From Escherichia coli (GTDB lineage Bacteria; Pseudomonadota; Gammaproteobacteria; Enterobacterales; Enterobacteriaceae), in the NCBI RefSeq assembly GCF_965641715.1, contig NZ_OZ282453.1: a DNA stretch of 64,000 nucleotides; one strand, written 5' to 3'. Under the pieces are notes generated by a model that saw only the letters and a list, made by a program, of their open reading frames with translations, was not told where the DNA came from and ran no database searches. Position numbers and translations under genes: made by a program. Below are positions 21,738 through 40,882 of this stretch, piece by piece; position 1 is the first letter of the stretch; the number at the start of each line of letters is the position of its first letter.

Positions 21738-21999
21738 TAACGTTTTCCTTATTGATGCTATTCATTTTGGACATGCAGATCACTTTTGATGACTCACGGA
21801 ATATCAGCAAAAATGATTGCGGCAAATCCTATCACCTGGCGCAATAAAAAATCACGAAAAATAAGCTGAAATAAGGACTCAAAAAAACAACTAAGAGTTA
21901 TTGTTTTTTCATCGAACGGCGAAGAAACTAACTTACTAAAACACAATAATTTAAAAGTCCCCCATCCTTGCTCCTTGGGTGAAAAAAATCCAATTTAGA

Positions 22000-22050
22000 G
22001 GATGTCTGAAATGATATGTAGTTTTCTGTACAACATCATTTCAGACATCC
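22000..22050. repeat. Perfect 16-bp inverted repeat with 19-bp spacer in AT-rich intergenic DNA upstream of tpsA
   Basis: ggatgtctgaaatgat (22000-22015) and atcatttcagacatcc (22035-22050). Confidence 0.8.
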
Positions 22051-23127
22051 GAATAAAACAACAAAGTTGGTGAGTTACAATTAATTTAAATCTTATTATT
22101 TGATTAACAAAGCATCATCATTACTGCATCTTATTCTCTATATCTTTTACGTCGGGGTAGATTCTTTATGGTCATTACGGGCAGGCGACATTTCATTATA
22201 TTACCATTTGCATTCACGCTTGTAACCCTTAAGAGTTATATAAAAAGGAAAGAGTTCTTGCTCATGGTATTACTGAGATCGGATTAACCATGAGGTTAGC
22301 TATATAGAGAGCTTTGGCTTTGCGACAATTGGCTTAAGCAGCCACATTATGCCTGCTTATCGTTGAAAGGGAGAAAGAAGAGCAAAACGGTTTGGCAAGC
22401 TTTCATTCCCATCTAATAGCAATCACCGCTATACATCATCCCTTAACGTATTCTGGTCTTCATAAAAATGTTATTCTAAATTAAAGATTGTAATGATTTT
22501 AATAATGTTGTTATTATTTTGCAACAAAACAACCTAACACAATGATTATTCGCGATTTTTTATTAGTTAAGAGGAATTGTTTTTACAGATTGCGCTACAA
22601 TTCCGCTCATTTCTCACCACAGGAAAAGCTGAAGTAATCTTAAATGACTGTATTAACCCTTTTCTCCGCTGCCAGCACTCTTAAATATCGTTGTTTTATT
22701 CTTATAAAAACGGCTTTTTTGACATAAAAAGTAATAGGTTCAGCCATTATGCAGAATTTACAACCTGAGAAAATCGCAAAAAACACTCTTATTCAGAATA
22801 AAACTCTGTTTATCATCTTTCGGTAAGCATTAAATTACTATATTACCGTTCAACATTAGTATGAATGAAAATTCAATTGTTATACATGTGATGAATGTCA
22901 TATATTGTGCTCATCGATTGCAGGACATCGCTATTCTTTTAGAGATACAGATATCACGCTGTTACTCTCTAATATAAAGAACACGCAAAGATTAGTTGTG
23001 TTACTGCAGTTGTTATGTCGCATATGGAATGCCCATTGTTACATCTTTAGTAAAAAGCTTTATTCACTTTCAAAATTTTTACTCCATGAAGATGGGCTGT
23101 TTTGCTGCAAGCAATTGAGTTAGTGCA

Positions 23128-23751
23128 ATGAACAAGAACTTACTAACAAGGGTAATTATCATTTCGGATGATCTATATTACCTTCAGGGATTAAGTGCAA
23201 AACTAGGTCACCATTATCGTTTTTTTATTGAGTGTTTTTTTTGTTCTCAAAATGCATGCAATAATGACCTAAGTACACTTAGATTTGACAACCGCTTTAC
23301 CAAAAACGTACTTCTTGTCGCAGTGGATGACGTAAGTATACTTGCAAAACTGCCAGATTTGGCCAGGTTTTTAATGATTGTTTCACTAAGAAAGATGAAA
23401 AACAGAAATATCTTCTTTTCACTTTCAGAGCAAACATTCATTAGCCGATATATAAAATTGAATAAACTCATTACTTTGATTAAAAGTACTGATAAAGACC
23501 AGCAAGTCAGGCAGGTGACTCTGACAAGGTATGAGTGGGATATCTATTACTTATATTTTAAGATAGATAACAAAAGAATATTGCACACCCTGCTAAAAAA
23601 GGATGTCAAGTATATTAGTCACTATAAAATATCAGTTTTTAACAAGTTTGAAATTGCTTGTGATAGTGATGGCTTTTACATTTTCAAGGCACTTATACAG
23701 TTAAGGAGATTTACCGGTTTTAAAAACGTCAGATTGTATCAATTGCATTAA
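23128..23751 (+). CDS. Hypothetical protein (207 aa), possible regulator upstream of fimbrial operon
   Basis: AT-rich gene directly upstream of fimbrial major subunit; no motif I can assign. Confidence 0.35.
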   Translation: MNKNLLTRVIIISDDLYYLQGLSAKLGHHYRFFIECFFCSQNACNNDLSTLRFDNRFTKNVLLVAVDDVSILAKLPDLARFLMIVSLRKMKNRNIFFSLSEQTFISRYIKLNKLITLIKSTDKDQQVRQVTLTRYEWDIYYLYFKIDNKRILHTLLKKDVKYISHYKISVFNKFEIACDSDGFYIFKALIQLRRFTGFKNVRLYQLH

Positions 23752-23793
23752 TTAACTCGTTCTATATTAACTCTAAATTTCAAGGATATTAAT

Positions 23794-24354
23794 ATGTTTT
23801 CTACTTTCAAAAAAGCAGCTCTGCTGGCAGCTATTGCATTACCTTTTTCAACTATGGCTGCGCCTACAGTCACTTTTCAGGGTGAAGTAACCGATCAGAC
23901 CTGTTCCGTAAATATCAACGGTCAAACCAATTCAGTAGTATTGATGCCGACCGTAGCCATGGCTGACTTCGGTGCAACTTTAGCTGATGGTCAGAGCGCA
24001 GGCCAGACGCCGTTTACGGTTTCTGTGTCTAACTGCCAGGCTCCAACTGGTGCAGATCAGGCAATCAACACCACCTTCCTGGGCTACGACGTTGACGCTA
24101 GCACGGGTGTTATGGGAAACCGTGATACCAGCAGCGATGCGGCGAAAGGCTTTGGCATTCAGTTAATGGATTCCAGCACTTCTGGTAACCCAGTAACTCT
24201 GGCTGGCGCGACTAACGTACCGGGTCTGACCCTGAAAGTTGGCGATACCGAAGCCAGCTACGACTTCGGTGCGCGTTACTTCGTTATCGATAGCGCTGCT
24301 GCCACTGCCGGTAAAATTACCGCTGTCGCAGAATACACCCTGAGCTACCTCTAA
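23794..24354 (+). CDS. Fimbrial major subunit (chaperone-usher, type-1-like pilin), 186 aa
   Basis: Signal peptide, conserved Cys pair (QTCSV...NCQ), Ala/Thr/Gly-rich, C-terminal donor strand ...AEYTLSYL. Confidence 0.8.
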   Translation: MFSTFKKAALLAAIALPFSTMAAPTVTFQGEVTDQTCSVNINGQTNSVVLMPTVAMADFGATLADGQSAGQTPFTVSVSNCQAPTGADQAINTTFLGYDVDASTGVMGNRDTSSDAAKGFGIQLMDSSTSGNPVTLAGATNVPGLTLKVGDTEASYDFGARYFVIDSAAATAGKITAVAEYTLSYL

Positions 24355-24361
24355 TTAATCT

Positions 24362-24397
24362 ACTGGCTGGCAGTAAATGTCAGCCAGTATTTCTTTG
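24362..24397 (+). terminator. Attenuating hairpin after fimbrial major subunit gene
   Basis: actggctg-gcagtaaatgt-cagccagt followed by atttcttt; typical pilin-gene attenuator position. Confidence 0.5.
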
Positions 24398-24439
24398 CAC
24401 AATTAATAGTGATTTTTCATGGACATGGAAAAGATAAGA

Positions 24440-25141
24440 ATGAACATTTTTGCATATTTACTGGTACTTGTATTTTCCATGAGCATGAGCAGCAGCGCGT
24501 TTGCCAGCGTGGTAATGACCGGAACCCGTATTATTTTCCCTGGTGACGCAAAGGAAAAAACCATCCAGTTGCGAAATACCAGCGATCAGCCCTATATCAT
24601 TAATATCCATGTTGAGGATGAACGTGGTTCTGACAAGAATGTACCGTTTATGCCAACCCCGCAGACATTTCGCATGGAAGCTGCCGCAGGTCAGGCGTTA
24701 CGCCTGCTCTACACTGGTGATAATTTACCGCAGGATCGCGAGTCTGTTTTCTGGTTTAGTTTCAGTCAACTACCTTATCTGAATAAGAACGATAAAAGTC
24801 AGAACCAGCTCATCCTGGCCCTGACTAATCGAGTCAAAATTTTCTATCGTCCCAGCTCAATTGTCGGTAAATCCAGTGACGCGCCAAAAAACCTGACTTA
24901 CCAGGTAAAACAGAACCGCATTGAAGTGACGAATCCCACGGGCTATTACGTCGTGATTCGCGCCGCTGAACTGCTTAATAACGGTAAAAAAGTCCCCCTC
25001 GCGAATTCCGTCATGATTGCTCCTCAAAGCACAATTGAATGGACACTACGCACTGGCATCAGCGTCGCTCCCGGTGCGCAGATTCATTTAGTGACCGTCA
25101 ATGACTATGGCGTAAATGTCACGTCTGAGCATGCCTTATAA
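24440..25141 (+). CDS. Periplasmic fimbrial chaperone (PapD/FimC family)
   Basis: Signal peptide MNIFAYLLVLVFSMSMSSSAFA; chaperone-like N-terminus VVMTGTRIIFPGDAKEKTIQLRN; ORF extends to 24419. Confidence 0.8.
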   Translation: MNIFAYLLVLVFSMSMSSSAFASVVMTGTRIIFPGDAKEKTIQLRNTSDQPYIINIHVEDERGSDKNVPFMPTPQTFRMEAAAGQALRLLYTGDNLPQDRESVFWFSFSQLPYLNKNDKSQNQLILALTNRVKIFYRPSSIVGKSSDAPKNLTYQVKQNRIEVTNPTGYYVVIRAAELLNNGKKVPLANSVMIAPQSTIEWTLRTGISVAPGAQIHLVTVNDYGVNVTSEHAL

Positions 25142-25193
25142 GCTCTTTCCCCTTTTTTGAGCGGTATCCTTTTTCACGCACGAGTATGTCGAG

Positions 25194-27716
25194 ATGAATA
25201 AATCCGTTGTGTCAATTTCTGCGGCAATATTGGTTTTACTCTGCCAGCCGGTTATGGGGAAAGAAATCTCACCCGCTACACCGTCAGATGAAGACAACTA
25301 CACCTTTGACCCGCAACTCTTTCGCGGCAGCAGATTTAGTCAGTCGTCATTGGCAAAACTGACAACTCGTGAGTCTGTTGCACCGGGCAATTATAAAATG
25401 GACATCTACACCAATAATAAGTTGTCAGGCAGTTGGAATGTCACGTTCAAAGAAGCCGCTGATGGTCGCGTTCTGCCCTGCCTGACGCCTGAAGTCGCGG
25501 ACGCGATAGGCCTCAAAACAGGGGAAGATAAGGGTGAAAAAGATCCGGTCTGTACCTTTGCTCAGGAACTCGCTCCCGGCATCACCAGCCAGACACAGTT
25601 GTCACAACTACGCCTTGACTTGTCGGTGCCTCAGAGTCAAATGATTAGTCGCCCTCGCGGCTATGTCCCCCCCAGCGAGCTGGATACCGGAGCATCGCTG
25701 GCGTTCATGAATTATATTGCCAACTATTACAACGTTGCCTATTCAGGGCAGAATGCTCATAGCCAGCGTTCGCTATGGGCATCATTTAATGGTGGCATCA
25801 ACCTTGGTGCCTGGCAATATCGTCAGTTATCCAACATGACCTGGGATAATGACAAAGGGAATCAGTGGAACAATATTCGTAGCTATTTGCAACGCCCGCT
25901 GCCCGCCATAAATAGCCAGTTAATGATGGGGCAGCTTATCACCAGCGGAAGATTTTTCTCTGGACTCAGTTATCACGGCGTTAGTCTCGCGACCGATGAA
26001 CGTATGCTGCCGGACTCCATGCGCGGCTATGCGCCGACTATTCGCGGCGTGGCCGCAACAAACGCCAGAGTCTCGGTAATGCAAAACGGTCATGAAATAT
26101 ATCAGACCACCGTGGCTCCTGGCCCTTTCGAGATAAACGACCTATACCCCACCAGCTACAGCGGCGATCTGGATGTCACCGTTACGGAAGCTAACGGCGC
26201 AGTCAGTCGTTTCAGTGTCCCCTTTTCAGCCGTACCAGAATCGATGCGTCCAGGAACTTCCCGTTATAACGTGGAAGTAGGTAAAACGCAGGATAGTGGT
26301 GATGACTCGATGTTTGGTGACCTTACCTGGCAGCACGGGATGACTAATACGCTGACATTTAACAGTGGTTCGCGTATCGCTGATGGCTACCAGGCGCTGA
26401 TGCTGGGCGGAGTCTATGGCAGTTCGCTGGGGGCATTTGGGGCAAACCTCACTTGGTCCCATGCGCGTGTTCCCGAAAGCGAAGCGCAGAGTGGTTGGAT
26501 GTCGCAATTAACCTGGAGTAAAACTTTCCAGCCTACTTCAACCACCGTCTCCCTGGCAGGTTATCGATACTCTACCAGCGGCTATCGTGATCTGGCTGAT
26601 GTGCTGGGAGAGCGTCATGCTGCCAGCAATAAACAGTCATGGGACTCCAGCCAGTGGCGTCAACAGTCGCGCTTCGATCTTACGTTAAGTCAGAGCCTTG
26701 CGAATTACGGCAACCTGTTTGTGTCAGGTTCAACACAGAACTACCGTGGCGGCAAAAGCCGTGATACACAGCTTCAGTTAGGTTACAGCAATAGCTTTAG
26801 CCATGGCATCAGTATGAACCTTTCCGTCGGACGCCAAAGAATGGGCGGCTATAAAGACAATTCTGATGATATGCAGACGGTAACGTCCCTTTCATTCTCA
26901 TTCCCACTTGGCGGCAATGGACCTCGTGTACCAAGTCTTAGCAACAGCTGGACCCATTCAACTGACGGTAGCTCGCAATTACAAAGCTCGCTAACCGGAA
27001 TGCTTGATGAAGCACAGACCACCAACTACAGCCTGAACGTCATGCGCGATCAACAATATAAGCAGACGACGCTTAGCGGAAACATGCAAAAACGGTTTTC
27101 ACAAACTACCGTCGGATTGAACGCATCGAAGGGCCAGGATTACTGGCAGGCGTCCGGAAACGTACAAGGCGCGATGGCCGTACATGGCGGCGGCGTCACT
27201 TTCGGACCTTATCTGGGTGAAACGTTCGCCCTGGTCGAAGCAAAAGGCGCAGAAGGTGCAAAAGTCTATAACTCCAGTCAGCTGGAAATTAATGACAGTG
27301 GCTATGCGCTTGTTCCGGCAGTAACGCCCTATCGATACAACCGTATATCTCTCGATCCACAAGGAATGGATGGCGATGCCGAGTTGGTCGACAGTGAAAG
27401 ACAGGTAGCACCGGTTGCGGGTGCGGCGGTGAAAGTAATTTTCCGTACCCGTCCTGGTAAAGCGTTGCTGATTAAATCCCGCATGGCAGATGGTTCGGAA
27501 CTGCCAATGGGAGCCGATGTGCTGGATGAGAATAATACAGTCGTCGGTATAGCCGGTCAGGGGGGGCAAATTTACCTCCGCACAGAACAGACAAAAGGCC
27601 ACTTGTCAGTTCGCTGGGGTGAAGGTGCTAACGATAGCTGCCAATTGCCCTTTGATATCAGCGGGAAGGACAGCAATAGCCCTATCATCCGCCTGAATGA
27701 AACCTGTCAGTCTTGA
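25194..27716 (+). CDS. Fimbrial outer-membrane usher (840 aa)
   Basis: Size, signal peptide and beta-barrel-rich composition of the FimD/PapC family; sits between chaperone and adhesin genes. Confidence 0.85.
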   Translation: MNKSVVSISAAILVLLCQPVMGKEISPATPSDEDNYTFDPQLFRGSRFSQSSLAKLTTRESVAPGNYKMDIYTNNKLSGSWNVTFKEAADGRVLPCLTPEVADAIGLKTGEDKGEKDPVCTFAQELAPGITSQTQLSQLRLDLSVPQSQMISRPRGYVPPSELDTGASLAFMNYIANYYNVAYSGQNAHSQRSLWASFNGGINLGAWQYRQLSNMTWDNDKGNQWNNIRSYLQRPLPAINSQLMMGQLITSGRFFSGLSYHGVSLATDERMLPDSMRGYAPTIRGVAATNARVSVMQNGHEIYQTTVAPGPFEINDLYPTSYSGDLDVTVTEANGAVSRFSVPFSAVPESMRPGTSRYNVEVGKTQDSGDDSMFGDLTWQHGMTNTLTFNSGSRIADGYQALMLGGVYGSSLGAFGANLTWSHARVPESEAQSGWMSQLTWSKTFQPTSTTVSLAGYRYSTSGYRDLADVLGERHAASNKQSWDSSQWRQQSRFDLTLSQSLANYGNLFVSGSTQNYRGGKSRDTQLQLGYSNSFSHGISMNLSVGRQRMGGYKDNSDDMQTVTSLSFSFPLGGNGPRVPSLSNSWTHSTDGSSQLQSSLTGMLDEAQTTNYSLNVMRDQQYKQTTLSGNMQKRFSQTTVGLNASKGQDYWQASGNVQGAMAVHGGGVTFGPYLGETFALVEAKGAEGAKVYNSSQLEINDSGYALVPAVTPYRYNRISLDPQGMDGDAELVDSERQVAPVAGAAVKVIFRTRPGKALLIKSRMADGSELPMGADVLDENNTVVGIAGQGGQIYLRTEQTKGHLSVRWGEGANDSCQLPFDISGKDSNSPIIRLNETCQS

Positions 27717-27731
27717 TACAGAGAAAACCCG

Positions 27732-29066
27732 ATGTCTAAATCGACTTTTTTACACATTCTGATTAGCTCCATCATATTGGTGGCACTAATACAATCATCC
27801 GCTTGGGCTAACTGTACAAACACACAGATAGGTCAAACTGAAGATGGTCGGACAGCGCTTATTGAGTTCGGAAAAATTAATATGACCGACACCTATTTTG
27901 CGCCAGCAGGTTCACTCCTCGCGACAACGGTCGTACCTCCCACTAACTACACATCAGGTGGCGCGACAGGAAGCTCCGTACTGTGGGAATGTGATGCAAC
28001 AGATTTGCCAAACATCTATTTTCTGGTCGCTACCAATGGCGACGACCGCGTGGGGGGCTTTTACGATGCAGGCGGGCCTGATGGTCTGAGTGATGTCTAT
28101 GCCACCTGGTTCGCTTTTGTCGGTCTCAAGCAGACCATGGCGGGCGTGACGCTTGGTCGTTACTGGAAGAAAGTGCCCATCACCAGTTATGCCACTCAGG
28201 GAACTAAAATCCAGATTCGCTTACAGGATATCCCTCCTCTTCATGCTGAGCTTTATCGCATCAGTACGCTACCTGATACATCAGCAACAACAAGTTGGTG
28301 CGGTAATAATAATACAGATGGTAGTGGAGTCGGATTCGCAAAACCTTCCGGTACAATCTATAACTGTGTTCAGCCCAATGCCTATATTCAGCTTTCCGGT
28401 ACCAGCGGCATTTTATTTGGTCATGATGAGCCCGGCGAAGATAGTTCTGTTCATTGGGATTTCTGGGGTGCTGATAATGGTTTTGGTTACGGAATGCGTT
28501 CGGCCAATCGACTCTACAACAATGCCACCTGCGTTGCCCGCAGCGCCACGCCGTTAGTATTGCTGCCGACAATTGCAGAAGCACAACTGAATGCGGGCAT
28601 GGAAAGTACCGGTAATTTTAATGTCCGCGTCGAGTGTAGTAACTCGGTTCAATCAGGGATTAGCGATACTCAGACAGCATTAGGAATCCAGGTGTCTGAA
28701 GGTGCATATACAGCAGCGCAAAAACTGGGGATTATCAATAGCAACGGCGGCGTCAGCGCCCTAGTCTCTGATAATTATGACGCAGCAGAGATGGCAAAGG
28801 GCGTTGGGATCTACATTTCTAACAGTGCTCACCCCGATACGGCGATGACGCTGGTTGGTCAACCGGGCATCGCGAAGTTAACCCCCGGAGGAAATGCAGC
28901 GGGGTGGTATCCTGTATTTGAAGGGGCAACATTAGAAGGTGCGACTCACCCCGGATACTCCAGCTATAGTTACTCTTTTATCGCCCGGTTGAAGAAACTG
29001 CCAAATCAGACAGTCAGTGCGGGAAAAGTGCGGGCAACGGCTTATATATTGGTGAAAATGCAATGA
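27732..29066 (+). CDS. Fimbrial tip adhesin-like protein (444 aa, putative lectin domain plus pilin domain)
   Basis: Signal peptide; too large for a simple pilin; operon position after usher. Confidence 0.55.
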   Translation: MSKSTFLHILISSIILVALIQSSAWANCTNTQIGQTEDGRTALIEFGKINMTDTYFAPAGSLLATTVVPPTNYTSGGATGSSVLWECDATDLPNIYFLVATNGDDRVGGFYDAGGPDGLSDVYATWFAFVGLKQTMAGVTLGRYWKKVPITSYATQGTKIQIRLQDIPPLHAELYRISTLPDTSATTSWCGNNNTDGSGVGFAKPSGTIYNCVQPNAYIQLSGTSGILFGHDEPGEDSSVHWDFWGADNGFGYGMRSANRLYNNATCVARSATPLVLLPTIAEAQLNAGMESTGNFNVRVECSNSVQSGISDTQTALGIQVSEGAYTAAQKLGIINSNGGVSALVSDNYDAAEMAKGVGIYISNSAHPDTAMTLVGQPGIAKLTPGGNAAGWYPVFEGATLEGATHPGYSSYSYSFIARLKKLPNQTVSAGKVRATAYILVKMQ

Positions 29067-29752
29067 AATCCGTTTTGCTGCTCTTAACCGTCTTGTTCGT
29101 ACAGTCAGTGGAAGCCGGCATCATGCCGGCTTCTTCACGGATTATTTATCACGATGGCGATCGGGAAAAGACACTGATGCTGGTCAATACCAATGACTAC
29201 CCGGTACTGGTGCAAAGTTGGGTAGATAATGGTGAAGGTTCCCCAGAAGCTGCTTCTCCCCCCTTTGTGGTGCTGCCACCGGTTTTCCGCCTGGCTGCGA
29301 GACGAACCCAGGGGTTGCGGATTATCTATAATCATGACCCACTTCCCCAGGATCGCGAATCTGCATTCTGGTTAAATCTTTATGAAATGCCACCAGAAAC
29401 TCCCCATCAAGATCCCACACATTTAACGCTGGCAATGAATACGCAACTTAAAATCTTTTACAGACCTAAATCTGTAACTATGACACCTGAAGAAGCTATG
29501 CGTAAAATAAGTTGGCATCTGGTTAACAACGGCAGCAGCAGCTATATTGAGCTTAATAACCCAACACCACTGAATATCTCTTTCACCTCCATCAGCATTG
29601 GGGCTACGAAGGTAGAGCAAGAAAGCGATATGATGATAAAACCCTTCAGTCAACGACGGTACTGGTTAGCAAGTAAAAACGTTAGTGGTGTGGTTGCGGC
29701 GACATATCTCGATGATAATGGTGCACAGATAAAGCAACAATTAGCGCAATAA
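29063..29752 (+). CDS. Second periplasmic fimbrial chaperone (PapD-like), 229 aa
   Basis: Signal peptide; SSRIIYHDGDREKTLMLVNTNDYPVLVQSW resembles the chaperone N-terminal domain; 4-bp overlap with adhesin gene. Confidence 0.75.
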   Translation: MKSVLLLLTVLFVQSVEAGIMPASSRIIYHDGDREKTLMLVNTNDYPVLVQSWVDNGEGSPEAASPPFVVLPPVFRLAARRTQGLRIIYNHDPLPQDRESAFWLNLYEMPPETPHQDPTHLTLAMNTQLKIFYRPKSVTMTPEEAMRKISWHLVNNGSSSYIELNNPTPLNISFTSISIGATKVEQESDMMIKPFSQRRYWLASKNVSGVVAATYLDDNGAQIKQQLAQ

Positions 29753-29829
29753 TACCCCGCGTGGATATGTAAACTCTTCGCGATAGTTCACCGCTAACGA
29801 ATAACATCTTTACCCCTGTCCCCCCCGAA

Positions 29830-29855
29830 GTGGAGAAATGACAAAATCTCTCCAC
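29830..29855. terminator. Candidate bidirectional hairpin between fimbrial operon end and convergent SDR gene
   Basis: gtggaga-aatgacaaaa-tctccac followed by tccattttcc. Confidence 0.4.
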
Positions 29856-29896
29856 TCCATTTTCCAGTTAAAACACCTCAACGCAGCCAAAAATCG

Positions 29897-30688
29897 TTAA
29901 CGGATTGAATATCCGCCATCAATGACTAATAGTTGTCCATTGACATAATCTGAAGCGGCACTGGCGAGAAACACCATTGCCCCCATAAGATCCTGTGCCC
30001 TTCCCCAGCGTTGAGCCGGTATACGCCCTTTTATTAACTCTTTTATTTTAGGGTTATTATAAATAATAGCGGTCATTTCACTCACATAATATCCTGGGGC
30101 GATACCATTAATCTGAATATTATATTCCGCAAAATCATCGGCATACGCTTTGGTCAGCCCCGCTAAAGCATGTTTAGTCGCCGCATACCCTGGCGACCAA
30201 CGTCCCCCATGAAATGACAATACGGAACACATATTAATAATTTTCCCTTTTCTTTGCGGGACAAATATATTCAATGCGGCCTGGCTCATATCGAATGCAG
30301 CATTCAGGTTGAGATTAATCATCGGATCCCAGTCGTTTCGATTGAAATCGATAGGACGATTAATGTTACACACGCCCGCGTTATTGACCAGAATATCTAA
30401 CTGACCGAAACGCTCCAGACACCTATTAATAATGGTGCATGATGCATCAGGTTTTGTTATGTCTATTGTCATAAACTCAACTTCAACGCCTTCATGAGTT
30501 AAAGGCTTCAAATATCTATTATCAGGCTCTTTGATGTCAACCAACAATAGATTAGCCCCTGCTTTGGCCAGAGCCGAGCATAAGCCTCTCCCCAGCTCAC
30601 CCGCGGCCCCAGTTACGATGGCCACCTTGTTATGTAATGAAAAAAAATCCAATGAAAAATCTTCAATAGAAAAGCTCATATCACACAT
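29897..30688 (-). CDS. Short-chain dehydrogenase/reductase family oxidoreductase (263 aa)
   Basis: VAIVTGAAGELGRG Rossmann motif, NNAG, catalytic Y-x3-K (YAATK). Confidence 0.8.
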   Translation of the reverse strand: MCDMSFSIEDFSLDFFSLHNKVAIVTGAAGELGRGLCSALAKAGANLLLVDIKEPDNRYLKPLTHEGVEVEFMTIDITKPDASCTIINRCLERFGQLDILVNNAGVCNINRPIDFNRNDWDPMINLNLNAAFDMSQAALNIFVPQRKGKIINMCSVLSFHGGRWSPGYAATKHALAGLTKAYADDFAEYNIQINGIAPGYYVSEMTAIIYNNPKIKELIKGRIPAQRWGRAQDLMGAMVFLASAASDYVNGQLLVIDGGYSIR

Positions 30689-31366
30689 TGCTCCTTATGA
30701 GTAAGTAATATTTAAGGGATAATTTAAGTAATTTTTAGATTTCAATAAAAAAATATAAACATTAAAAATCAGCATGAATAATAAACATCAAATCTTATAT
30801 ACATTTAAGTAGTGATGTATCACGTAAAAATATAGTCATCATAGATATTATGCAGTACGCACAAAAAAACAGACTGGATTTGCTTGCTGATCTATAATCT
30901 TTATCTAAATTACTATTGGCGCTTTGGATAATAACATAAGCATATATTACCTCCTAGCAATAATAGACATAACCTCATATCAAGGTGTCACTGGTAAATA
31001 ATCGGATAAAAGACAGTACCGGTCGGCACATAGAGCTTCTTCTATTTCACCAGAAGTGCACAGCAGGGAACTACCAATCACACGGTTAGTGTCATGGGTG
31101 GAGGATGCGTCCCGTTCTTTCCCTATAACGGGGATACGCAGTTTTTATCAGTACATGCAGAAAACCCCCTAATTCACATCACTGCAGAAAGCATTTAATA
31201 GAAATATACATCGTTTAAGAATTTCAATTAAATCAAGATTATTCTTAAAAATCAGATAATTCACATTTGCATTTTTAGGAAATTATACTATAGTGCACTT
31301 AATGTTCTTGCCTTTATTTTCTGAGTAATACTGGATTTGTAATACACAACTAAGGTATAAAATGTA

Positions 31367-32179
31367 ATGATCTACATTATAAATGATGAAGTAAGATTCA
31401 ACTCATCATCTAATAAGTTAACATCACTCCTTACATCAGAGGAAGTGATACTCACTTATCCTGCGGGAAAATGCTTAAAGTTACTTTTAGATAACGCTTA
31501 TAGTGTCGTATCGCATAATCAATTCTTTGAAAAAGTCTGGAGCGATAGCAGTGCCGATGTCGCAACCAACACTTTATATCAAAATATATCGATGATAAGA
31601 CGTTCTTTTCGCGAAATCAGCTCAGCGACGATATTTAATGATGTTATCAGAACGGTGCCCCGTAAAGGCTTCAAAATCAATGAAGAAATCAGCATAACTG
31701 TTCTCGACAATAATCATACTGAGAATGAAAGTGTTGAGAGTGAAGAGAATGGTACCCACACTGAAAATATAAATAAAAATCACATTGCAAAAGGTATATT
31801 TACCACAAAGAATACATTGCTTATAGTTTGTTTTTTTGCGGCATGGGGGATAGTGTATATATCTTCTTATTTTTTCGATATGGCTTTTCAAAGCAAATCC
31901 CACACTATAAAAAAAATAGATGCTTTCTCAAATTATGCTCAACACCCTACTCAGGAAGGATGCAGTTATTTCTATGATAATAAATACTTTAATTCCGTAG
32001 ACATGTTATCACCGATTATTGAAAAATTGCAGAAGATGGAAATTAACTGCAAAATACATCCTTACATTTACATTGCAACAAATGATAGCATGAGCGGATT
32101 TTATGCTTTCACCTGTAGTCAGATGTTAAACTCTGAATCACCAAATAATTGCAACTCTCTCTATTATAAAGCGGAGTAA
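31367..32179 (+). CDS. ToxR/CadC-like membrane-anchored transcriptional regulator (N-terminal winged-helix, one TM helix, Cys-containing periplasmic domain), 270 aa
   Basis: wHTH signature ...SHNQFFEKVWSDSSADVATNTLYQNISMIRRSF...TVPRKGFKI; TM segment LLIVCFFAAWGIVYISSYFF; periplasmic cysteines. Confidence 0.7.
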   Translation: MIYIINDEVRFNSSSNKLTSLLTSEEVILTYPAGKCLKLLLDNAYSVVSHNQFFEKVWSDSSADVATNTLYQNISMIRRSFREISSATIFNDVIRTVPRKGFKINEEISITVLDNNHTENESVESEENGTHTENINKNHIAKGIFTTKNTLLIVCFFAAWGIVYISSYFFDMAFQSKSHTIKKIDAFSNYAQHPTQEGCSYFYDNKYFNSVDMLSPIIEKLQKMEINCKIHPYIYIATNDSMSGFYAFTCSQMLNSESPNNCNSLYYKAE

Positions 32180-32183
32180 TCAT

Positions 32184-32675
32184 ATGACTCAAAGATATTT
32201 TCTGTTTGCGGGAATAATTTTATGTGCTTTTATTGCAGCAATTCTGAGCCATATTGCGTTTCATCATGCCAATGAACCAGCAGAGCAAAACATATCATGT
32301 AATGCCCATGTTATTAATTTCACCGATCATACAAAAATGGATCAATATTTTTCGTTAAATATGATTTCTGAAAATAACACAGGAAACATGTATCTCACGG
32401 GCGCATACACGGTAGATGGAAAAAAGATGGGCTTCATCCGCCGATATGTGAGTTTTACATACAAGAAATTCCGTGATACCGTTTACTTCACCACTGTTAA
32501 AATACAAAAAATACAAAAAGATGATAACATTAGTGATGAAATCCTTGAAAATATCACTTCTGATTTTTTCATAAAAGTAGACACCTCAATTAATTTTTAT
32601 GTTACACGTCAAAATGATTACAACTACGTATTCTCTACAGGCAGGACACCACGCTTCATATGTATTTCCCACTAA
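32184..32675 (+). CDS. ToxS-like small membrane partner (N-terminal TM helix plus periplasmic domain), 163 aa
   Basis: Single N-terminal TM (FLFAGIILCAFIAAILSHIAF), 5 bp downstream of the ToxR-like gene. Confidence 0.45.
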   Translation: MTQRYFLFAGIILCAFIAAILSHIAFHHANEPAEQNISCNAHVINFTDHTKMDQYFSLNMISENNTGNMYLTGAYTVDGKKMGFIRRYVSFTYKKFRDTVYFTTVKIQKIQKDDNISDEILENITSDFFIKVDTSINFYVTRQNDYNYVFSTGRTPRFICISH

Positions 32676-32776
32676 CAGCATTGTTGCTCCTGGCGTTTGT
32701 CACCAGTTAATAACCTTCTGATGGCTTTGTTTATATTTTAAGGCAATAAAAAACCATTCCAATATTGGTTAATTAT

Positions 32777-34291
32777 TTATCTGTTTACATACCATTGATA
32801 AAACTCTGTCGCTTTCATTGGTTTTGCATATAAGTATCCCTGAACTAATGTCACGTTATTATGAATAAGATATTCCGCCTGGTGAGAGGTACTGACACCT
32901 TCTGCAATCGTTATCAAATTGAGTCGATTACTCAGCTTAATAATAATATCTAAAACAGGCGTTTCGTCTTCCGCTGTAGTGAGCGTGTCTATAAAGCTTT
33001 TATCTATTTTAAGATAATCAACAGACAACTTTTGCAGAAGGCCAAGGGAACAATATCCCGTGCCAAAATCATCAACTGCAAATTCACAGCCATGGATCCT
33101 TAATTCATTTATTTTCTGTAATGCAAGATCAGTATCTTCAACCAGATTGCGTTCGGTAATCTCAAGAACAATGTTAAATTTATCAGATATTGCATTTTTA
33201 ATATGTAAAACATCAGCAACAAAATCAGGATGTGCAAGATGCTCCGCGGCAATATTTATCCCAAGGTGAAACGGCTTTTTCACTTTCCAGCTTTGTACAT
33301 CCTGAATAATCAGTTCAAAGAGATGCTTAGTTAACGGTATAATTAAATTTTCCTCTTCTGCAGCGCGGATAAAAACTACCGGAGATATATTTTTACCATC
33401 TTCGCGTTGCCAACGCATTAACGCCTCAACCCCCAGACACGCTTTGGTTGTCGTGTCACATACTGGTTGATAATGCACAGAAAATTCTCCGGATGACATT
33501 CCTTTCTTAATTTCTTCTGCCAGGGACATTTTCCGAGATATCCAGCGCTGCCATAAGAAGTACAGGATAAAAGAAAGAAGAATAGATAATGGAAGAATGT
33601 AAAATACATTACTAATGACATAGGGATATAATGAAATCATCGGCGTAGTAACTGTAAGACTAGCCTGACTGATCGCAGAATTAAAATCTTTTTTTAACAT
33701 ATATAACTTGTCATTATTATTTACACCACTAATAATTGCAGGCCCTTCAGTAAAGCTAAGAGAAAATGAATCATCATTCTCATCATCAAGAACATCCATC
33801 AGATCATAGATATATCGTGACTCTACAATACTAAAAGCTGTCATATCATTCCCTATTGGCATAAGGAACACTATGGCTGTTTTACCTGGTACAAAACTTG
33901 TACCGCTAATTGATACTATGCGTGATTCTTTATTTTTATTGTGAAAGCTCGTACCGTAAACATCGTTAACATTCATTTTTTTGAAACCGCTAACTGAAGA
34001 ACATATTTGGAAATTATTTTCTATAAGACCCGTTGTTCGAACATAGGGGGTCAATGCTCCGTTAGCAATCAATTGTTCCAGGATATCTTTGCAGGGTTTC
34101 ATCACCAGAATAGAAGTAAGCTTTGTCGTATGTTTGACAATTTGCGTAACATTATCAAGCTGTTTTAACAGAATACCGGCGGTAATTGTCGTATCTCTAT
34201 TCATTTGAAATATTGACATAGCAAACGATAGTAACACCCCCAGAATGCCTGGTATTATAATGAGTACAAACATTTTTTTGTTGAATACCAT
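32777..34291 (-). CDS. Membrane-anchored sensor c-di-GMP phosphodiesterase (periplasmic sensor region, TM helix, EAL domain)
   Basis: EAL motif EALMRWQ in C-terminal domain; N-terminal TM plus periplasmic region; ORF extends to 34387, start chosen at MVFNKKMFVLIII. May correspond to the EHEC vmpA-type PDE, unverified. Confidence 0.75.
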   Translation of the reverse strand: MVFNKKMFVLIIIPGILGVLLSFAMSIFQMNRDTTITAGILLKQLDNVTQIVKHTTKLTSILVMKPCKDILEQLIANGALTPYVRTTGLIENNFQICSSVSGFKKMNVNDVYGTSFHNKNKESRIVSISGTSFVPGKTAIVFLMPIGNDMTAFSIVESRYIYDLMDVLDDENDDSFSLSFTEGPAIISGVNNNDKLYMLKKDFNSAISQASLTVTTPMISLYPYVISNVFYILPLSILLSFILYFLWQRWISRKMSLAEEIKKGMSSGEFSVHYQPVCDTTTKACLGVEALMRWQREDGKNISPVVFIRAAEEENLIIPLTKHLFELIIQDVQSWKVKKPFHLGINIAAEHLAHPDFVADVLHIKNAISDKFNIVLEITERNLVEDTDLALQKINELRIHGCEFAVDDFGTGYCSLGLLQKLSVDYLKIDKSFIDTLTTAEDETPVLDIIIKLSNRLNLITIAEGVSTSHQAEYLIHNNVTLVQGYLYAKPMKATEFYQWYVNR

Positions 34292-34484
34292 ACATGTTTC
34301 CCCACGCATCAGGGTGATGCAACCTAAGAAATTATAGTACAATTGCCAGTAAAAGCGGGTGATAGCAGACTGATCAATGATAAGCATTTAAGATCATATA
34401 GTACTATGATATTTCTGAAAATTGTTACGCATGTCTGCGAATAGCTATTTAGCGCTTACCAAAATCACCCGCTAAAATGCCGCT

Positions 34485-35843
34485 TTATGGTGACTCACAA
34501 AAATTCACCACATCCCTCACAACCACCTTATTACGCCCGGTCTCTTTCGCCTCGTATAGTGCGTTATCAGCCAGTCGATAGATCTCATTCGGGTTTAACG
34601 CATTTTCCTGAGTCACAACAGCGCCAATACTAATCGTCACTTTTTGTGGTATGGCGTATTCAGGATTATCACCAGTTAAACGCTCAACATTTTCCCGAAT
34701 CCTTTCCGCTAAAGCTTTCGCACGTTCAGTATCGATGTCCGTCAGCAAGACGCCAAACTCTTCGCCGCCGACGCGCGCAAAAAGGTCATCTGGCCGTATG
34801 CTTTTCCCAATGATATTCACCACTGTTTTTATCACCTGATCGCCAATCGGATGCCCCCAGGTGTCGTTGACTTTTTTGAAGTGGTCGATATCCATAATCA
34901 TGACGCAATAAGGCGTTTTTTTGGCCGATGCTGATTGAACCGTCAGTTCATTAAAAAAATAATTTCTGTTAAATATATTGGTTAAGGGATCGCGATGTGC
35001 AATGTCCTTTGTTACTCGTAGCGCACTGAATATATGGCACATAAATATTACCATAACGGTTAACTTACTGACTACTTCAATAGTGCGACTAATATACCAA
35101 ATGGACACGCTATACCTGCTCATAAATAAAAGAGAGACATTGTACAGTACGGCACAAAAAGCAATCACTGTCACTCCATTCCAGATATCATAGCGTAAAC
35201 CATTAAAGTATAGATTAACCGAAAGCAAGGTTAACCACATGAAAATCATTATGGTAACATATGAAGCTTTCCAAACCACTTGACCATTTTCATTGGTTAA
35301 CTCGGCAATGTGTAAATCGTAGCTCTCATAATGGCTAGAAAGTATGTGAGCAACTATCGGCCCCCCAAGAACAAAAAACAAACTTATGCACAAAGTCATT
35401 TTTTTGGAAAATAAATTGCGCTGTTTTGTGTTTTCACTAACTTTATTCACCAATGCCAGAAATATTAATATGCACAAACTCATCTGACGAAACAAATAAT
35501 AAATTGCAATGTCATTTTGAACAACACTGCTTGTCAAACGCCCCTCAATCATTTGCTGAATGATAATGACGGTTTTAACAAAGTAAATCAAACAACTCAG
35601 AAAAGCCAAACTAAGTATACAGTTTGAAAATTGCCTACGGTCATAAATGAAATACAACTGCATAAAAATAAATGCAACAGTATCGATAAAAAATAAAGCA
35701 ATCATTACCATCAGATAGGTTGATCGTGGAACAACTTCCTCAACGCCTGGCTGATTAAACCAACTATTCACCAAAACCAAAGCAAGCCCAAACAATAAGC
35801 TCACTAAGACAGTACTACTAATTCTCAAATAGTCTTTTTCCAT
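34485..35843 (-). CDS. dgcT: Diguanylate cyclase DgcT/YcdT (membrane domain plus GGDEF)
   Basis: Starts MEKDYLRISSTVLVS (ORF extends upstream to 35966); GGEEF active site RVGGEEFGVLL; divergent from pgaA as in the known locus. Confidence 0.85.
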   Translation of the reverse strand: MEKDYLRISSTVLVSLLFGLALVLVNSWFNQPGVEEVVPRSTYLMVMIALFFIDTVAFIFMQLYFIYDRRQFSNCILSLAFLSCLIYFVKTVIIIQQMIEGRLTSSVVQNDIAIYYLFRQMSLCILIFLALVNKVSENTKQRNLFSKKMTLCISLFFVLGGPIVAHILSSHYESYDLHIAELTNENGQVVWKASYVTIMIFMWLTLLSVNLYFNGLRYDIWNGVTVIAFCAVLYNVSLLFMSRYSVSIWYISRTIEVVSKLTVMVIFMCHIFSALRVTKDIAHRDPLTNIFNRNYFFNELTVQSASAKKTPYCVMIMDIDHFKKVNDTWGHPIGDQVIKTVVNIIGKSIRPDDLFARVGGEEFGVLLTDIDTERAKALAERIRENVERLTGDNPEYAIPQKVTISIGAVVTQENALNPNEIYRLADNALYEAKETGRNKVVVRDVVNFCESP

Positions 35844-36197
35844 AAAGCTACACCAACCTGTAGGTTGTAGATCCCTTTCTATTATTAATAGATATAAGAA
35901 CTCTACAGTTGTCAATATGAAAACCCACTCACAAACAATACCGATGATGATAGTTGCAGACCGCAATTATTATTACCTTAGTGCTTTATACATTCTTTGC
36001 GACAAGACAGGCTTGTAAATATTTATAAATGGTTATAAGGAAATCCTTATAAAACATTCATTCATAGATATATTAGGAATAACAATTGAATCCGTGAGTA
36101 CAGTAACGCTGCATTTCATCAGGACTTTCGAAAAATCCGAAATCATGCATCGGAATTTACTGATTTAATTATTTTACTCCTAATTTATTTTGAAAAA

Positions 36198-36431
36198 GGC
36201 ATTGGGATTTATGCCGTATTCCTGAAGATCCTCATCATTGGAATGGATTTTCGGGCGAGAAAAGGATTTTATATGGACACTCTGCTCATCATTTCTTCTT
36301 CTCATCATCAACAATTCACGTCTCTCTTCCGCGTTTAATAACGGATTATGAGGTGCAAAAAATATCTTTCTTTTCAGTTACCTGTCATTAGATACAGAGA
36401 GAGATTTTGGCAATACATGGAGTAATACAGG
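36198..36431 (+). promoter_or_regulatory. pgaA long 5' leader with CsrA-binding GGA motifs overlapping the ribosome-binding site
   Basis: GGA motifs at ...acatGGAgtaatacaGGAtg... directly before the start codon; leader length from established knowledge of pgaABCD regulation; the 5' boundary is approximate. Confidence 0.5.
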
Positions 36432-38855
36432 ATGTATTCAAGTAGCAGAAAAAGGTGCCCGCAAACCAAATGGGCTTTGAAAATTCTTACTGCCGCATTT
36501 TTAGCAGCGAGTCCCGCGGCGAAGAGTGCCGTTAATAACGCCTATGATGCATTGATTATTGAAGCTCGCAAGGGAAATACTCAGCCAGCTTTGTTATGGT
36601 TTGCACAAAAATCAGCACTCAGTAATAACCAAATTGCTGACTGGTTACAGATTGCCTTATGGGCCGGGCAAGATAAACAGGTTATTACCGTTTACAACCG
36701 CTATCATTATCAGCAATTACCAGCGCGTGGTTATGCAGCTGTCGCCGTCGCTTATCGTAACCTGCAACAATGGCAAAACTCGCTTACACTGTGGCAAAAG
36801 GCGCTCTCTCTGGAGCCGCAAAATAAGGATTATCAACGGGGACAAATTTTAACCCTGGCAGATGCGGGTCACTATGATACTGCGCTGGTTAAACTTAAGC
36901 AGCTTAACTCTGGAGCACCGGACAAAGCCAATTTACTCGCAGAAGCCTATATCTATAAACTGGCAGGGCGTCATCAGGATGAATTACGGGCGATGACAGA
37001 GTCATTACCTGAAAATGCATCTACGCAACAATATCCCACAGAATACGTGCAGGCATTACGTAATAATCAACTTGCTGCCGCGATTGACGATGCCAATTTA
37101 ACGCCAGATATTCGCGCTGATATTCATGCCGAACTGGTCAGACTGTCGTTTATGCCTACGCGCAGTGAAAGTGAACGTTATGCCATTGCCGATCGCGCCC
37201 TCGCCCAATACGCTGCATTAGAAATTCTGTGGCATGATAACCCTGACCGCACTGCCCAGTACCAGCGTATTCAGGTTGATCATCTTGGCGCGTTATTAAC
37301 TCGCGATCGTTATAAAGACGTTATTTCTCACTATCAGCGTTTAAAAAAGACGGGGCAAATTATTCCGCCCTGGGCGCAATATTGGGTTGCGTCGGCTTAT
37401 CTCAAAGAACATCAGCCAAAAAAAGCACAGTCAATAATGACAGAGCTCTTTTATCACAAGGAGACCATTGCCCCGGATTTATCCGATGAAGAACTTGCGG
37501 ATCTCTTTTACAGCCACCTGGAGAGTGAAAATTATCCGGGCGCGCTAACTGTCACCCAACATACCATTAATACTTCGCCGCCTTTCCTTCGGTTAATGGG
37601 CACGCCTACGAGCATCCCGAATGATACCTGGTTACAGGGGCATTCGTTTCTCTCAACCGTAGCAAAATATAGTAATGATCTTCCTCAGGCTGAAATGACA
37701 GCCAGAGAGCTTGCTTATAACGCACCAGGAAATCAGGGACTGCGCATTGATTATGCGAGTGTGTTACAAGCCCGCGGTTGGCCTCGTGCAGCAGAAAATG
37801 AATTAAAAAAAGCAGAAGTGATCGAGCCACGTAATATTAATCTGGAGGTTGAACAAGCCTGGACAGCATTAACGTTACAAGAATGGCAGCAGGCAGCGGT
37901 CTTAACGCACGATGTTGTCGAACGTGAACCGCAAGATCCCGGCGTTGTACGATTAAAACGTGCGGTTGATGTACATAATCTTGCAGAGCTTCGTATCGCT
38001 GGCTCAACAGGAATTGATGCCGAAGGTCCGGATAGTGGCAAACATGATGTCGACTTAACCACCATCGTTTATTCACCACCGCTGAAGGATAACTGGCGCG
38101 GTTTTGCTGGATTCGGTTATGCCGATGGACAATTTAGCGAAGGAAAAGGGATTGTTCGCGACTGGCTTGCGGGTGTTGAGTGGCGGTCACGTAATATCTG
38201 GCTCGAGGCGGAGTACGCTGAACGCTTTTTCAATCATGAGCATAAACCCGGCGCGCGCCTGTCTGGCTGGTATGATTTTAATGATAACTGGCGTATTGGT
38301 TCGCAACTGGAACGCCTCTCTCACCGCGTTCCATTACGGGCAATGAAAAATGGTGTTACAGGCAACAGTGCACAGGCTTATGTTCGTTGGTATCAGAATG
38401 AGCGGCGTAAGTACGGTGTCTCCTGGGCTTTCACTGATTTTTCCGACAGTAACCAGCGTCATGAAGTCTCACTTGAGGGTCAGGAACGCATCTGGTCTTC
38501 ACCATATTTGATTGTCGATTTCCTCCCCAATCTGTATTACGAACAAAATACAGAACACGACACCCCATACTACAACCCTATAAAAACGTTCGATATTGTT
38601 CCGGCATTTGAGGCAAGCCATTTGTTATGGCGAAGCTATGAAAATAGCTGGGAGCAAATCTTCAGCGCAGGTGTTGGTGCCTCCTGGCAAAAACATTATG
38701 GCACGGATGTCGTCACCCAACTCGGCTACGGGCAACGCATTAGCTGGAATGACGTGATTGATGCTGGCGCAACGCTACGCTGGGAAAAACGACCTTATGA
38801 CGGTGACAGAGAACACAACTTATACGTTGAAATCGATATGACATTCAGATTTTAA
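36432..38855 (+). CDS. pgaA: PGA (poly-beta-1,6-N-acetylglucosamine) outer-membrane export porin
   Basis: 807 aa; MYSSSRKRCP... N-terminus and TPR-then-barrel architecture; recognised as PgaA. Confidence 0.9.
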   Translation: MYSSSRKRCPQTKWALKILTAAFLAASPAAKSAVNNAYDALIIEARKGNTQPALLWFAQKSALSNNQIADWLQIALWAGQDKQVITVYNRYHYQQLPARGYAAVAVAYRNLQQWQNSLTLWQKALSLEPQNKDYQRGQILTLADAGHYDTALVKLKQLNSGAPDKANLLAEAYIYKLAGRHQDELRAMTESLPENASTQQYPTEYVQALRNNQLAAAIDDANLTPDIRADIHAELVRLSFMPTRSESERYAIADRALAQYAALEILWHDNPDRTAQYQRIQVDHLGALLTRDRYKDVISHYQRLKKTGQIIPPWAQYWVASAYLKEHQPKKAQSIMTELFYHKETIAPDLSDEELADLFYSHLESENYPGALTVTQHTINTSPPFLRLMGTPTSIPNDTWLQGHSFLSTVAKYSNDLPQAEMTARELAYNAPGNQGLRIDYASVLQARGWPRAAENELKKAEVIEPRNINLEVEQAWTALTLQEWQQAAVLTHDVVEREPQDPGVVRLKRAVDVHNLAELRIAGSTGIDAEGPDSGKHDVDLTTIVYSPPLKDNWRGFAGFGYADGQFSEGKGIVRDWLAGVEWRSRNIWLEAEYAERFFNHEHKPGARLSGWYDFNDNWRIGSQLERLSHRVPLRAMKNGVTGNSAQAYVRWYQNERRKYGVSWAFTDFSDSNQRHEVSLEGQERIWSSPYLIVDFLPNLYYEQNTEHDTPYYNPIKTFDIVPAFEASHLLWRSYENSWEQIFSAGVGASWQKHYGTDVVTQLGYGQRISWNDVIDAGATLRWEKRPYDGDREHNLYVEIDMTFRF

Positions 38856-38863
38856 GGATAAAT

Positions 38864-40882
38864 ATGTTACGTAATGGAAATAAATATCTCCTGATGCTGG
38901 TGAGTATAATTATGCTCACCGCGTGCATTAGCCAGTCAAGAACATCATTTATACCGCCACAGGATCGCGAATCTTTACTCGCCGAGCAACCGTGGCCGCA
39001 TAATGGTTTTGTAGCGATTTCATGGCATAACGTTGAAGACGAAGCTGCCGACCAGCGTTTTATGTCAGTGCGGACATCAGCACTGCGTGAACAATTTGCC
39101 TGGCTGCGCGAGAACGGTTATCAACCGGTCAGTATTGCTCAAATTCGTGAAGCACATCGAGGAGGAAAACCGCTACCGGAAAAAGCTGTAGTGCTGACTT
39201 TTGATGACGGCTACCAGAGTTTTTATACCCGCGTCTTCCCAATTCTTCAGGCCTTCCAGTGGCCTGCTGTATGGGCCCCCGTCGGCAGTTGGGTCGATAC
39301 GCCAGCGGATAAACAAGTAAAATTTGGCGATGAGATGGTCGATCGAGAATATTTTGCCACGTGGCAACAAGTGCGAGAAGTTGCGCGTTCCCGGCTCGTT
39401 GAGGTCGCTTCTCATACATGGAATTCTCACTACGGTATTCAGGCTAATGCCACCGGCAGCTTATTGCCTGTATATGTAAATCGTGCATATTTTACTGACC
39501 ACGCACGGTATGAAACCGCAGCAGAATACCGGGAAAGAATTCGTCTGGATGCTGTAAAAATGACGGAATACCTGCGTACAAAGGTTGAGGTAAATCCACA
39601 CGTTTTTGTTTGGCCTTATGGCGAAGCGAATGGCATAGCGATAGAGGAATTAAAAAAACTCGGTTATGACATGTTCTTCACCCTTGAATCAGGTTTGGCA
39701 AATGCGTCGCAATTGGATTCCATTCCGCGAGTATTAATCGCCAATAATCCCTCATTAAAAGAGTTTGCCCAGCAAATTATTACCGTACAAGAAAAATCAC
39801 CACAACGGATAATGCATATCGATCTTGATTACGTTTATGACGAAAACCTCCAGCAAATGGATCGCAATATTGATGTGCTAATTCAGCGGGTGAAAGATAT
39901 GCAAATATCAACCGTGTATTTGCAGGCATTTGCTGATCCCGATGGTGATGGGCTGGTCAAAGAGGTCTGGTTTCCAAATCGTTTGCTACCAATGAAAGCA
40001 GATATTTTTAGTCGGGTTGCCTGGCAATTACGTACCCGCTCAGGTGTAAACATCTATGCGTGGATGCCGGTATTAAGCTGGGATTTAGATCTCACATTAA
40101 CGCGAGTAAAATACTTACCAACAGGAGAGAAAAAAGCACAAATTCATCCTGAACAATATCGCCGTCTCTCTCCTTTCGATGACAGGGTCAGAGCACAAGT
40201 TGGCATGTTATATGAAGATCTTGCCGGACATGCTGCTTTTGATGGCCTATTGTTCCACGATGATGCTTTGCTTTCAGATTATGAAGATGCCAGTGCACCG
40301 GCTATCGCGGCTTATCAGCAAGCAGGCTTTAGCGGGAGTCTGAGCGAAATTCGACAAAACCCGGAGCAATTTAAACAGTGGACCCGCTTTAAAAGTCGTG
40401 CGTTAACTGACTTCACTTTAGAACTTAGTGCGCGCGTAAAAGCCATTCGTGGTCCACATGTTAAAACTGCACGAAATATTTTTGTACTTCCGGTAACACA
40501 ACCTGAAAGTGAAGCCTGGTTTGCACAGAATTATGCTGATTTCCTAAAAAGCTATGACTGGACTGCTATTATGGCTATGCCTTATATGGAAGGTGTCGCA
40601 GAAAAATCGGCTGATCAATGGTTAATACAACTGATCAATCAGATTAAAAGCATCCCTCAGGCTAAAGACAAATCTATTTTAGAATTACAGGCACAAAACT
40701 GGCAGAAAAATGGTCAGCATCAGGCTATTTCTTCGCAACAACTCGCTCACTGGATGAGCCTATTACAACTGAATGGAGTGAAAAACTATGGTTATTATCC
40801 CGACAATTTTCTGCATAACCAACCTGAAATAGACGTTATTCGTCCTGAGTTTTCAACAGCCTGGTATCCGAAAAATGATTAA
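38864..40882 (+). CDS. pgaB: PGA N-deacetylase lipoprotein
   Basis: 672 aa; lipoprotein signal (LTACISQ); polysaccharide deacetylase domain; gene order. Confidence 0.9.

Follow-up and report, generated by a model that had tools for sequence, protein, structure and literature searches.

Does an additional EAL-domain gene, standing beside the diguanylate cyclase gene dgcT and the pgaABCD operon, form with them a local circuit that sets PGA production, or does it stand there as a consequence of how this chromosomal site was assembled? The question is raised by positions 32777-35843 of the window (the whole 64,000-nucleotide stretch of DNA analysed here), where the ORF listing of this E. coli chromosome shows a pair of intact genes encoded by the minus strand (Table 1). 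An earlier note on this DNA had described an additional EAL enzyme with a periplasmic sensor next to dgcT, and this description holds: the open reading frame is intact, its coordinates are exact, and the sensor is a CSS domain. The orientation has to be corrected, however. Rather than lying tail-to-tail, or convergent, with dgcT as the same note had it, the EAL gene (vmpA, or pdeT, a name said to follow the 2016 nomenclature of Hengge et al.) is arranged in tandem with dgcT and lies downstream of it. Its actual tail-to-tail partner is the fidL-like gene on the opposite side, 101 nt away, while pgaABCD is divergent from dgcT. The same neighbours surround pdeT in several other E. coli loci, including that of isolate PapM-32-1, and in near-identical RefSeq loci the order runs fimbrial operon, SDR, winged-helix regulator, small hypothetical protein, EAL protein, dgcT, pgaABCD and phoH. 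Across complete E. coli genomes (5426 searched), the 3.9-kb segment from 32600 to 36500 finds a partial match in 4249 and a full match in 382, the best at 99.6%.

Table 1. Features of the pdeT-dgcT locus, in coordinates of the window
Feature	Coordinates	Strand	Basis or remark
OI-47-type island between tRNA-Ser serX (947-1034) and dgcT	1137..34518		blastn against K-12, an empty-site strain and ATCC 25922; tRNA
grvA, membrane-anchored ToxR-family winged-helix regulator	31367..32179	+	Pfam Trans_reg_C
fidL-like co-component of GrvA, 163 aa	32184..32675	+	orthology to O157:H7 protein
pdeT (vmpA), CSS-domain EAL phosphodiesterase	32777..34387	-	536 codons as annotated; Pfam CSS-motif and EAL
dgcT-pdeT spacer	34388..34484	-	reaches 34292 if M33 is the start
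Right junction of OI-47-type island, within last ~11 dgcT codons	34485..34518	-	homology to island-free strains from 34519
dgcT (ycdT), MASE4-GGDEF diguanylate cyclase	34485..35843	-	intact, 452 aa; RefSeq orthologs named dgcT
pgaA, pgaB, pgaC (then pgaD), PGA synthesis/export operon	36432..42200	+	ORFs of 807, 672 and 441 aa; RefSeq annotation of 98-99% identical loci

Identity, distribution and start codon of pdeT

The EAL protein is identical to the protein at the same position in O157:H7 strain F7386 at 531 of 536 residues, without gaps. Together with the published position below ycdT, this identifies the gene as the vmpA of EHEC, a correspondence that the earlier note had put forward for a protein comparison to settle. 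The published gene (EDL933_Z1528) is described as "inserted immediately downstream of ycdT", that is, of dgcT (Richter et al., 2014), and its product as an additional, sixth CSS-PDE of E. coli found in certain EHEC/EPEC strains (Herbst et al., 2018); reviews place vmpA within the island OI-47, which spans z1528-z1556 and measures 31,727 bp. Set against VmpA/PdeT of O157 (EDL933 Z1528), the window protein is the product of the same gene, with 99% identity and the same architecture, and both genes close the OI-47 island, flanked by fidL-grvA on one side and dgcT on the other. The five substitutions, given from window to O157 protein, are I59V, S211R, K226R, L421H and I431S; none affects a catalytic residue and none a cysteine. 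What does differ is the host: unlike O157:H7 EDL933, the strain that carries the window is a non-O157 E. coli, with a complete OI-47-type island.

The two genes on the other side of pdeT are equally familiar. Their products are near-identical to O157:H7 proteins (GrvA at 269 of 270 residues, the FidL-like protein at 162 of 163), and grvA is z1531 of OI-47. GrvA/FidL (ECs_1274/ECs_1273) is a co-component regulator of the ToxR/ToxS-VtrA/VtrC superfamily, so the earlier description of a "ToxRS-like pair" was a fair one. The 163-aa partner finds no Pfam match even at E≤10, and BLASTP detects no similarity between it and the FidL_like protein encoded next to PdeT's homolog in Enterobacter; it is assigned as a putative FidL because it is orthologous to ECs_1273 and because RefSeq so names it, the ortholog in O145:H28 being annotated as "FidL-like protein". 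The GrvA/FidL system is a neighbour of pdeT, not a part of the phosphodiesterase.

pdeT occurs in 414 of the 5426 complete E. coli genomes, as a single copy in each, and in 382 of these it is contiguous with dgcT. Clustering at 90% identity places the protein in a group of 1841 sequences, whose next relatives are 56% identical; the closest relatives outside E. coli, from Enterobacter, Klebsiella, Citrobacter and Lelliottia, are 50-56% identical. The nearest genomes found are those of an otter isolate, A16, and of the baboon isolate PapM-32-1. In contrast to a review in which the element is exclusive to O157:H7, O55:H7 and O145:H28, pdeT and OI-47 were found here in non-EHEC isolates from otter, baboon, pig, chicken meat and urinary infection.

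As annotated, the pdeT reading frame probably starts too early. Aligned PdeT homologs are 504-524 aa long, lack the first 32 residues and align from about residue 33 of the annotated protein, and a Shine-Dalgarno-like motif, GGGGA, stands 7 nt ahead of the ATG at 34291 (M33), with none ahead of the annotated ATG at 34387. Both observations favour M33, so the true product is probably a protein of 504 aa with the N-terminus MVFNKKMFVLIIIPG. The 32-codon extension itself is nearly identical across six E. coli loci and shows too little variation to discriminate between the two starts.

The OI-47-type island and the 3′ end of dgcT

By blastn, positions 2735-34473 of the window (31,739 bp) are missing from K-12, which has an IS3 element in their place and lacks the EAL gene. 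The length absent from K-12 matches the published 31,727 bp of OI-47. Its nearest full-length match, at 99.0%, is in the baboon isolate, and the PapM-32-1 annotation gives its content as fatty-acid/polyketide-like, ABC/Lol-like and two-partner secretion genes, a fimbrial operon, SDR, grvA, fidL and the EAL gene. Two other strains delimit the insertion. Ecol_545 has no island, and there serX lies 104 nt from dgcT, with no pdeT; ATCC 25922 carries a different, integrase-bearing island at the same serX-dgcT site. Homology of the window to both begins at 34519, inside dgcT. Since the junction falls within the last dgcT codons, DgcT exists with two alternative C-termini: ...VVVRDVVNFCESP (452 aa) in the window and in K-12, and ...VVVKEAEILINRKDDE (455 aa) in Ecol_545 and ATCC 25922, the two strains without this island.

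K-12 shares its DgcT C-terminus with the island-bearing strains, and the flanks of its IS3 element are of island type as well. In K-12-type loci, ycdU and a truncated malonyltransferase gene are retained on one side of IS3 and the island-type 3′ end of dgcT on the other. Because both island ends flank IS3, these loci look like deletion derivatives, as judged from their sequence, and most E. coli have this IS3 deletion derivative, with dgcT present and pdeT absent. It thus looks as if K-12-type strains descend from an island-bearing form and lost OI-47 by a deletion associated with IS3, rather than EHEC having gained it.

DgcT of the window is complete in its motifs as well as in its length. 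Pfam places MASE4 at residues 41-274 and GGDEF at 282-439, the active-site motif GGEEF is at 359, and the RxxD I-site, as RPDD, is at 350, five residues upstream. In two O157:H7 records dgcT is annotated with a frameshift, the A7 run at window positions 34916-34922 being reduced to A6. The idea that EHEC generally loses dgcT while keeping pdeT did not survive a search with a 66-nt sequence, in which the A6 allele was perfectly matched in only 4 of the 5426 genomes. The allele is either rare in nature or a sequencing error in the homopolymer, not a general feature of EHEC, and its rarity agrees with the intact ycdT region of EDL933 (Richter et al., 2014). A true loss of dgcT is seen in O145:H28 strain RM12581, where a 1.76-kb deletion (window 34297 to ~36058) removes dgcT and spares pdeT.

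Adjacency to dgcT and pgaABCD

Read jointly, these observations make it very likely that the gene is pdeT/vmpA, an accessory sixth CSS-domain phosphodiesterase in terminal position in OI-47, and that it adjoins dgcT through the placement of the island. The principal alternative extends the local signalling circuit envisaged in the earlier note: DgcT and PdeT would be a dedicated, co-expressed, antagonistic pair, perhaps with GrvA/FidL as an input, whose local c-di-GMP pool sets PgaCD activity and PGA output. Much about the locus invites such a proposal. Both are membrane proteins, encoded next to a pgaABCD operon whose PgaCD is activated by c-di-GMP; ycdT has been proposed to act on PGA owing to its divergent position (Richter et al., 2014); and the arrangement is retained in 382 of the 414 pdeT-positive genomes. 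dgcT and pdeT follow one another on one strand, and no intrinsic terminator is predicted on the minus strand between 34485 and 34291, so that co-transcription is possible at the level of sequence. By the usual marks of an operon the evidence is divided: the genes share a strand, and the gap, which measures 97 nt if counted to the annotated start and about 193 nt if counted to the probable one at 34291, is free of a predicted terminator, yet it contains promoter-like hexamers. One promoter-like site lies at 34421-34393 in the spacer, though such sites are no commoner than in shuffled sequence. The spacer RNA folds with z = -3.19 and is thus structured, without a U-tract hairpin.

The comparative evidence, however, points away from a dedicated circuit, which we regard as unlikely. 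An island that extends from serX to the last codons of dgcT by itself brings its terminal gene next to dgcT; in Ecol_545, which has no island, serX stands close to dgcT, and most E. coli, being IS3-deleted, keep dgcT without pdeT. The reverse separation also occurs, in RM12581. Among homologs with 50-56% identity, none of the seven contexts inspected (Enterobacter, Klebsiella, Citrobacter, Lelliottia) has a GGDEF or pga neighbour. Expression argues in the same direction, as CsrA represses DgcT in K-12 to levels that escape detection under standard laboratory conditions. Nor do the targets of the presumed input fit: those known for GrvA are LEE and gad genes, and not pdeT, dgcT or pga. The VmpA phenotypes published reportedly include motility, which suggests an effect wider than PGA. 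No demonstration of a dedicated DgcT-PdeT-GrvA circuit tuning PGA was found in the literature. From these genome comparisons we argue that the adjacency of pdeT and dgcT is incidental, and most simply a consequence of island position. Less likely again is the specific form of the proposal in which DgcT and PdeT are a co-transcribed, membrane-localised antagonistic pair gating PgaCD locally. Were it true, the natural variants of this locus (island present, IS3-deleted, dgcT deleted as in O145:H28, and the two DgcT C-termini) would reset PGA control lineage by lineage.

Sensor domain, catalytic site and predicted action of PdeT

In PdeT, Pfam assigns residues 63-222 to the CSS-motif domain (E 2e-13) and residues 291-523 to EAL (E 4.8e-64), and the former has a hydrophobic segment on either side, at 31-62 and at 253-280. 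The predicted topology, TM1, periplasmic CSS, TM2 and cytoplasmic EAL, is that of the CSS-domain phosphodiesterases. PdeC and PdeB of E. coli K-12 likewise have the order TM1-CSS-TM2-EAL, an EAL domain that is active and a conserved pair of periplasmic cysteines (Herbst et al., 2018), although they are only distant paralogs of PdeT, whose best full-length NCBIfam model, NF007839, reaches 311 bits, short of its cut-off of 461. The cysteines of PdeT, C99 and C129 (the CSS motif being at 129-131), are invariant in 13 aligned sequences and lie 30 residues apart, compared with C75 and C106 in PdeC.

The alignment of EAL catalytic residues, suggested in the earlier note as a check, returned the complete set. 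E321, R325, N378, E409, E412, D439, D440, K460, E496 and Q516 are invariant in 13 family members, and loop 6 reads DDFGTGY at 439-445. No residue of the catalytic set is lost or variable, and the degenerate active site that the earlier note had named as a refutation is therefore not seen. By sequence, the nearest structure solved is the EAL domain of PA3825 from Pseudomonas aeruginosa (PDB 4Y9O, 4Y8E and 5MF5), to which residues 287-526 of PdeT align with E 5e-44 and with all catalytic motifs in register; these structures cover the EAL domain only and are uninformative on the sensor domain. One difference is in the EGV motif, which is EGVS in PdeT and EGVE in PA3825-EAL, a serine or threonine at the fourth position being common to all 13 aligned members. 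E. coli has many degenerate EAL proteins, and this substitution might be taken to mean that the EAL domain is catalytically dead and that PdeT does no more than sense c-di-GMP or serve as a "trigger" protein; we consider this highly improbable, as EAL-x-R, N, ExxE, DDFGTGY, KxD, the E of EGV and QG are all invariant in the family, the first E of EGV is kept, the fourth-position S/T is a family trait, and a 99%-identical protein is reported to be an active phosphodiesterase.

Taking PdeT, then, as a catalytically competent member of the family, its action can be sketched from the O157:H7 protein and the paralogs PdeC and PdeB. VmpA of O157:H7 EDL933 is reported to have c-di-GMP phosphodiesterase activity and, when lost, to change both motility and biofilm formation (Branchu et al., 2013), and PdeT would likewise be an inner-membrane CSS-EAL enzyme that degrades c-di-GMP. 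For PdeC and PdeB, a DsbA/DsbB-dependent disulfide lowers activity, and the thiol form is processed by DegP/DegQ (Herbst et al., 2018). By analogy, a disulfide made by DsbA/DsbB between the two periplasmic cysteines may keep PdeT activity low, while the reduced, thiol form may dimerise via TM2, become highly active and be trimmed by DegP/DegQ. Downstream, c-di-GMP is known from the literature to stabilise and activate the PgaC-PgaD complex; by lowering c-di-GMP, PdeT would therefore be expected to disfavour PGA synthesis through PgaC-PgaD, as one of several c-di-GMP-dependent outputs and hence as a general effect.

The gene itself is nothing new: pdeT/vmpA has been described before, at this position and with GrvA/FidL, likewise described, as its neighbour. 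A role of VmpA in motility and biofilm formation has reportedly been in print since 2013, from Branchu and colleagues. What the analysis changes in the earlier account is that the genes are in tandem and not convergent, that the annotated start is probably 32 codons early, and that the link of pdeT to dgcT and pga is positional, not conserved. Three points may count as minor additions: pdeT is probably annotated with too long an N-terminus, the island junction falls within dgcT, and non-EHEC isolates also carry pdeT and OI-47. For the biology of E. coli, pdeT is relevant to the lowering of c-di-GMP, and to the accompanying shift between motility and biofilm, in some lineages, mainly O157:H7 and its relatives.

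The pdeT start and the dgcT-pdeT spacer

The annotated start of the 536-aa RefSeq-style pdeT ORF, the CSS-EAL phosphodiesterase gene downstream of dgcT, probably lies 32 codons too early, as homologs and local motifs suggest. Homologs of PdeT start at the position equivalent to M33 and, of the two candidate starts, only the M33 ATG is preceded by a Shine-Dalgarno-like GGGGA. The RNA of the spacer between dgcT and pdeT is predicted to fold at -60.8 kcal/mol, more stably than shuffled controls (z = -3.19), with a hairpin directly 5′ of where the pdeT ribosome-binding site probably lies; the fold of this segment is without a terminator-like U tract.

Features of the dgcT-pdeT region and O-island 47
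Feature	Window position	Strand	Remark
80-nt repeat, two copies	1016-1095; 1197-1276		181 nt apart, just 3′ of tRNA-Ser serX
OI-47	1137-34518
Island ends retained in K-12	1279-2734; 34474-34484		compared with L003 (K-12)
Spacer RNA	34280-34500	-
M33 ATG of pdeT	34291	-
Probable excess at annotated pdeT start	34292-34387	-
Deletion in RM12581	34297 to ~36058		L013 (RM12581 locus) 3700-4083
Right junction of OI-47-type island	34485-34518		within final ~11 codons of dgcT (3′ end)
A7 run in dgcT	34916-34922		directly before GGDEF domain

Loss and alleles of dgcT

The contiguous dgcT-pdeT arrangement is missing in about 30 of 414 pdeT-positive genomes. In O145:H28 RM12581, a 1.76-kb deletion with ~8 nt of microhomology removes the entire dgcT gene and extends to 5 nt upstream of the probable ATG of pdeT, taking the Shine-Dalgarno-like motif with it; as a result, pdeT is left divergent from pgaA. 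The "frameshifted" dgcT annotation in O157:H7 strains F7386 and FRIK2455 is due to an A6 allele in place of the A7 run. Perfect matches to this allele occur in only four of 5426 genomes, so it must represent a rare variant produced by slippage or, alternatively, an error in sequencing the homopolymer.

O-island 47 and its counterparts

Copies of the serX-adjacent repeat are more numerous in K-12 than in the window, and the K-12 record carries three annotated "RtT sRNA" features across the repeat stretch.

In Enterobacter hormaechei (CP169086.1, 1-13097), an IS-flanked island contains a CSS-EAL gene (55% identical) together with a fimbrial operon of the chaperone-usher type and, as a pair, genes for a wHTH and a FidL_like protein. 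The wHTH member shows full-length homology to GrvA (22% identity, E 1e-16). This set echoes the E. coli trio, in one of seven homolog contexts only.

According to a 2024 review, OI-47 is exclusive to O157:H7, O55:H7 and O145:H28. The island, with pdeT and grvA, was found here in non-EHEC isolates from otter, baboon, pig, chicken meat and a human urinary infection (L001, L014, L015, L020). DgcT ends in ...VVVRDVVNFCESP (452 aa in total) both in strains with the island and in K-12-type strains, and in ...VVVKEAEILINRKDDE (455 aa) in Ecol_545 and ATCC 25922, both of which lack OI-47. In K-12-type strains, ycdU and a truncated gene for ACP S-malonyltransferase are still present, as is the island-type end of dgcT. 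Because both island ends are thus kept, flanking an IS3 element, "O-island 47" looks, on sequence comparison, like a 31.7-kb IS3-associated deletion in the K-12 lineage rather than an EHEC-specific insertion.
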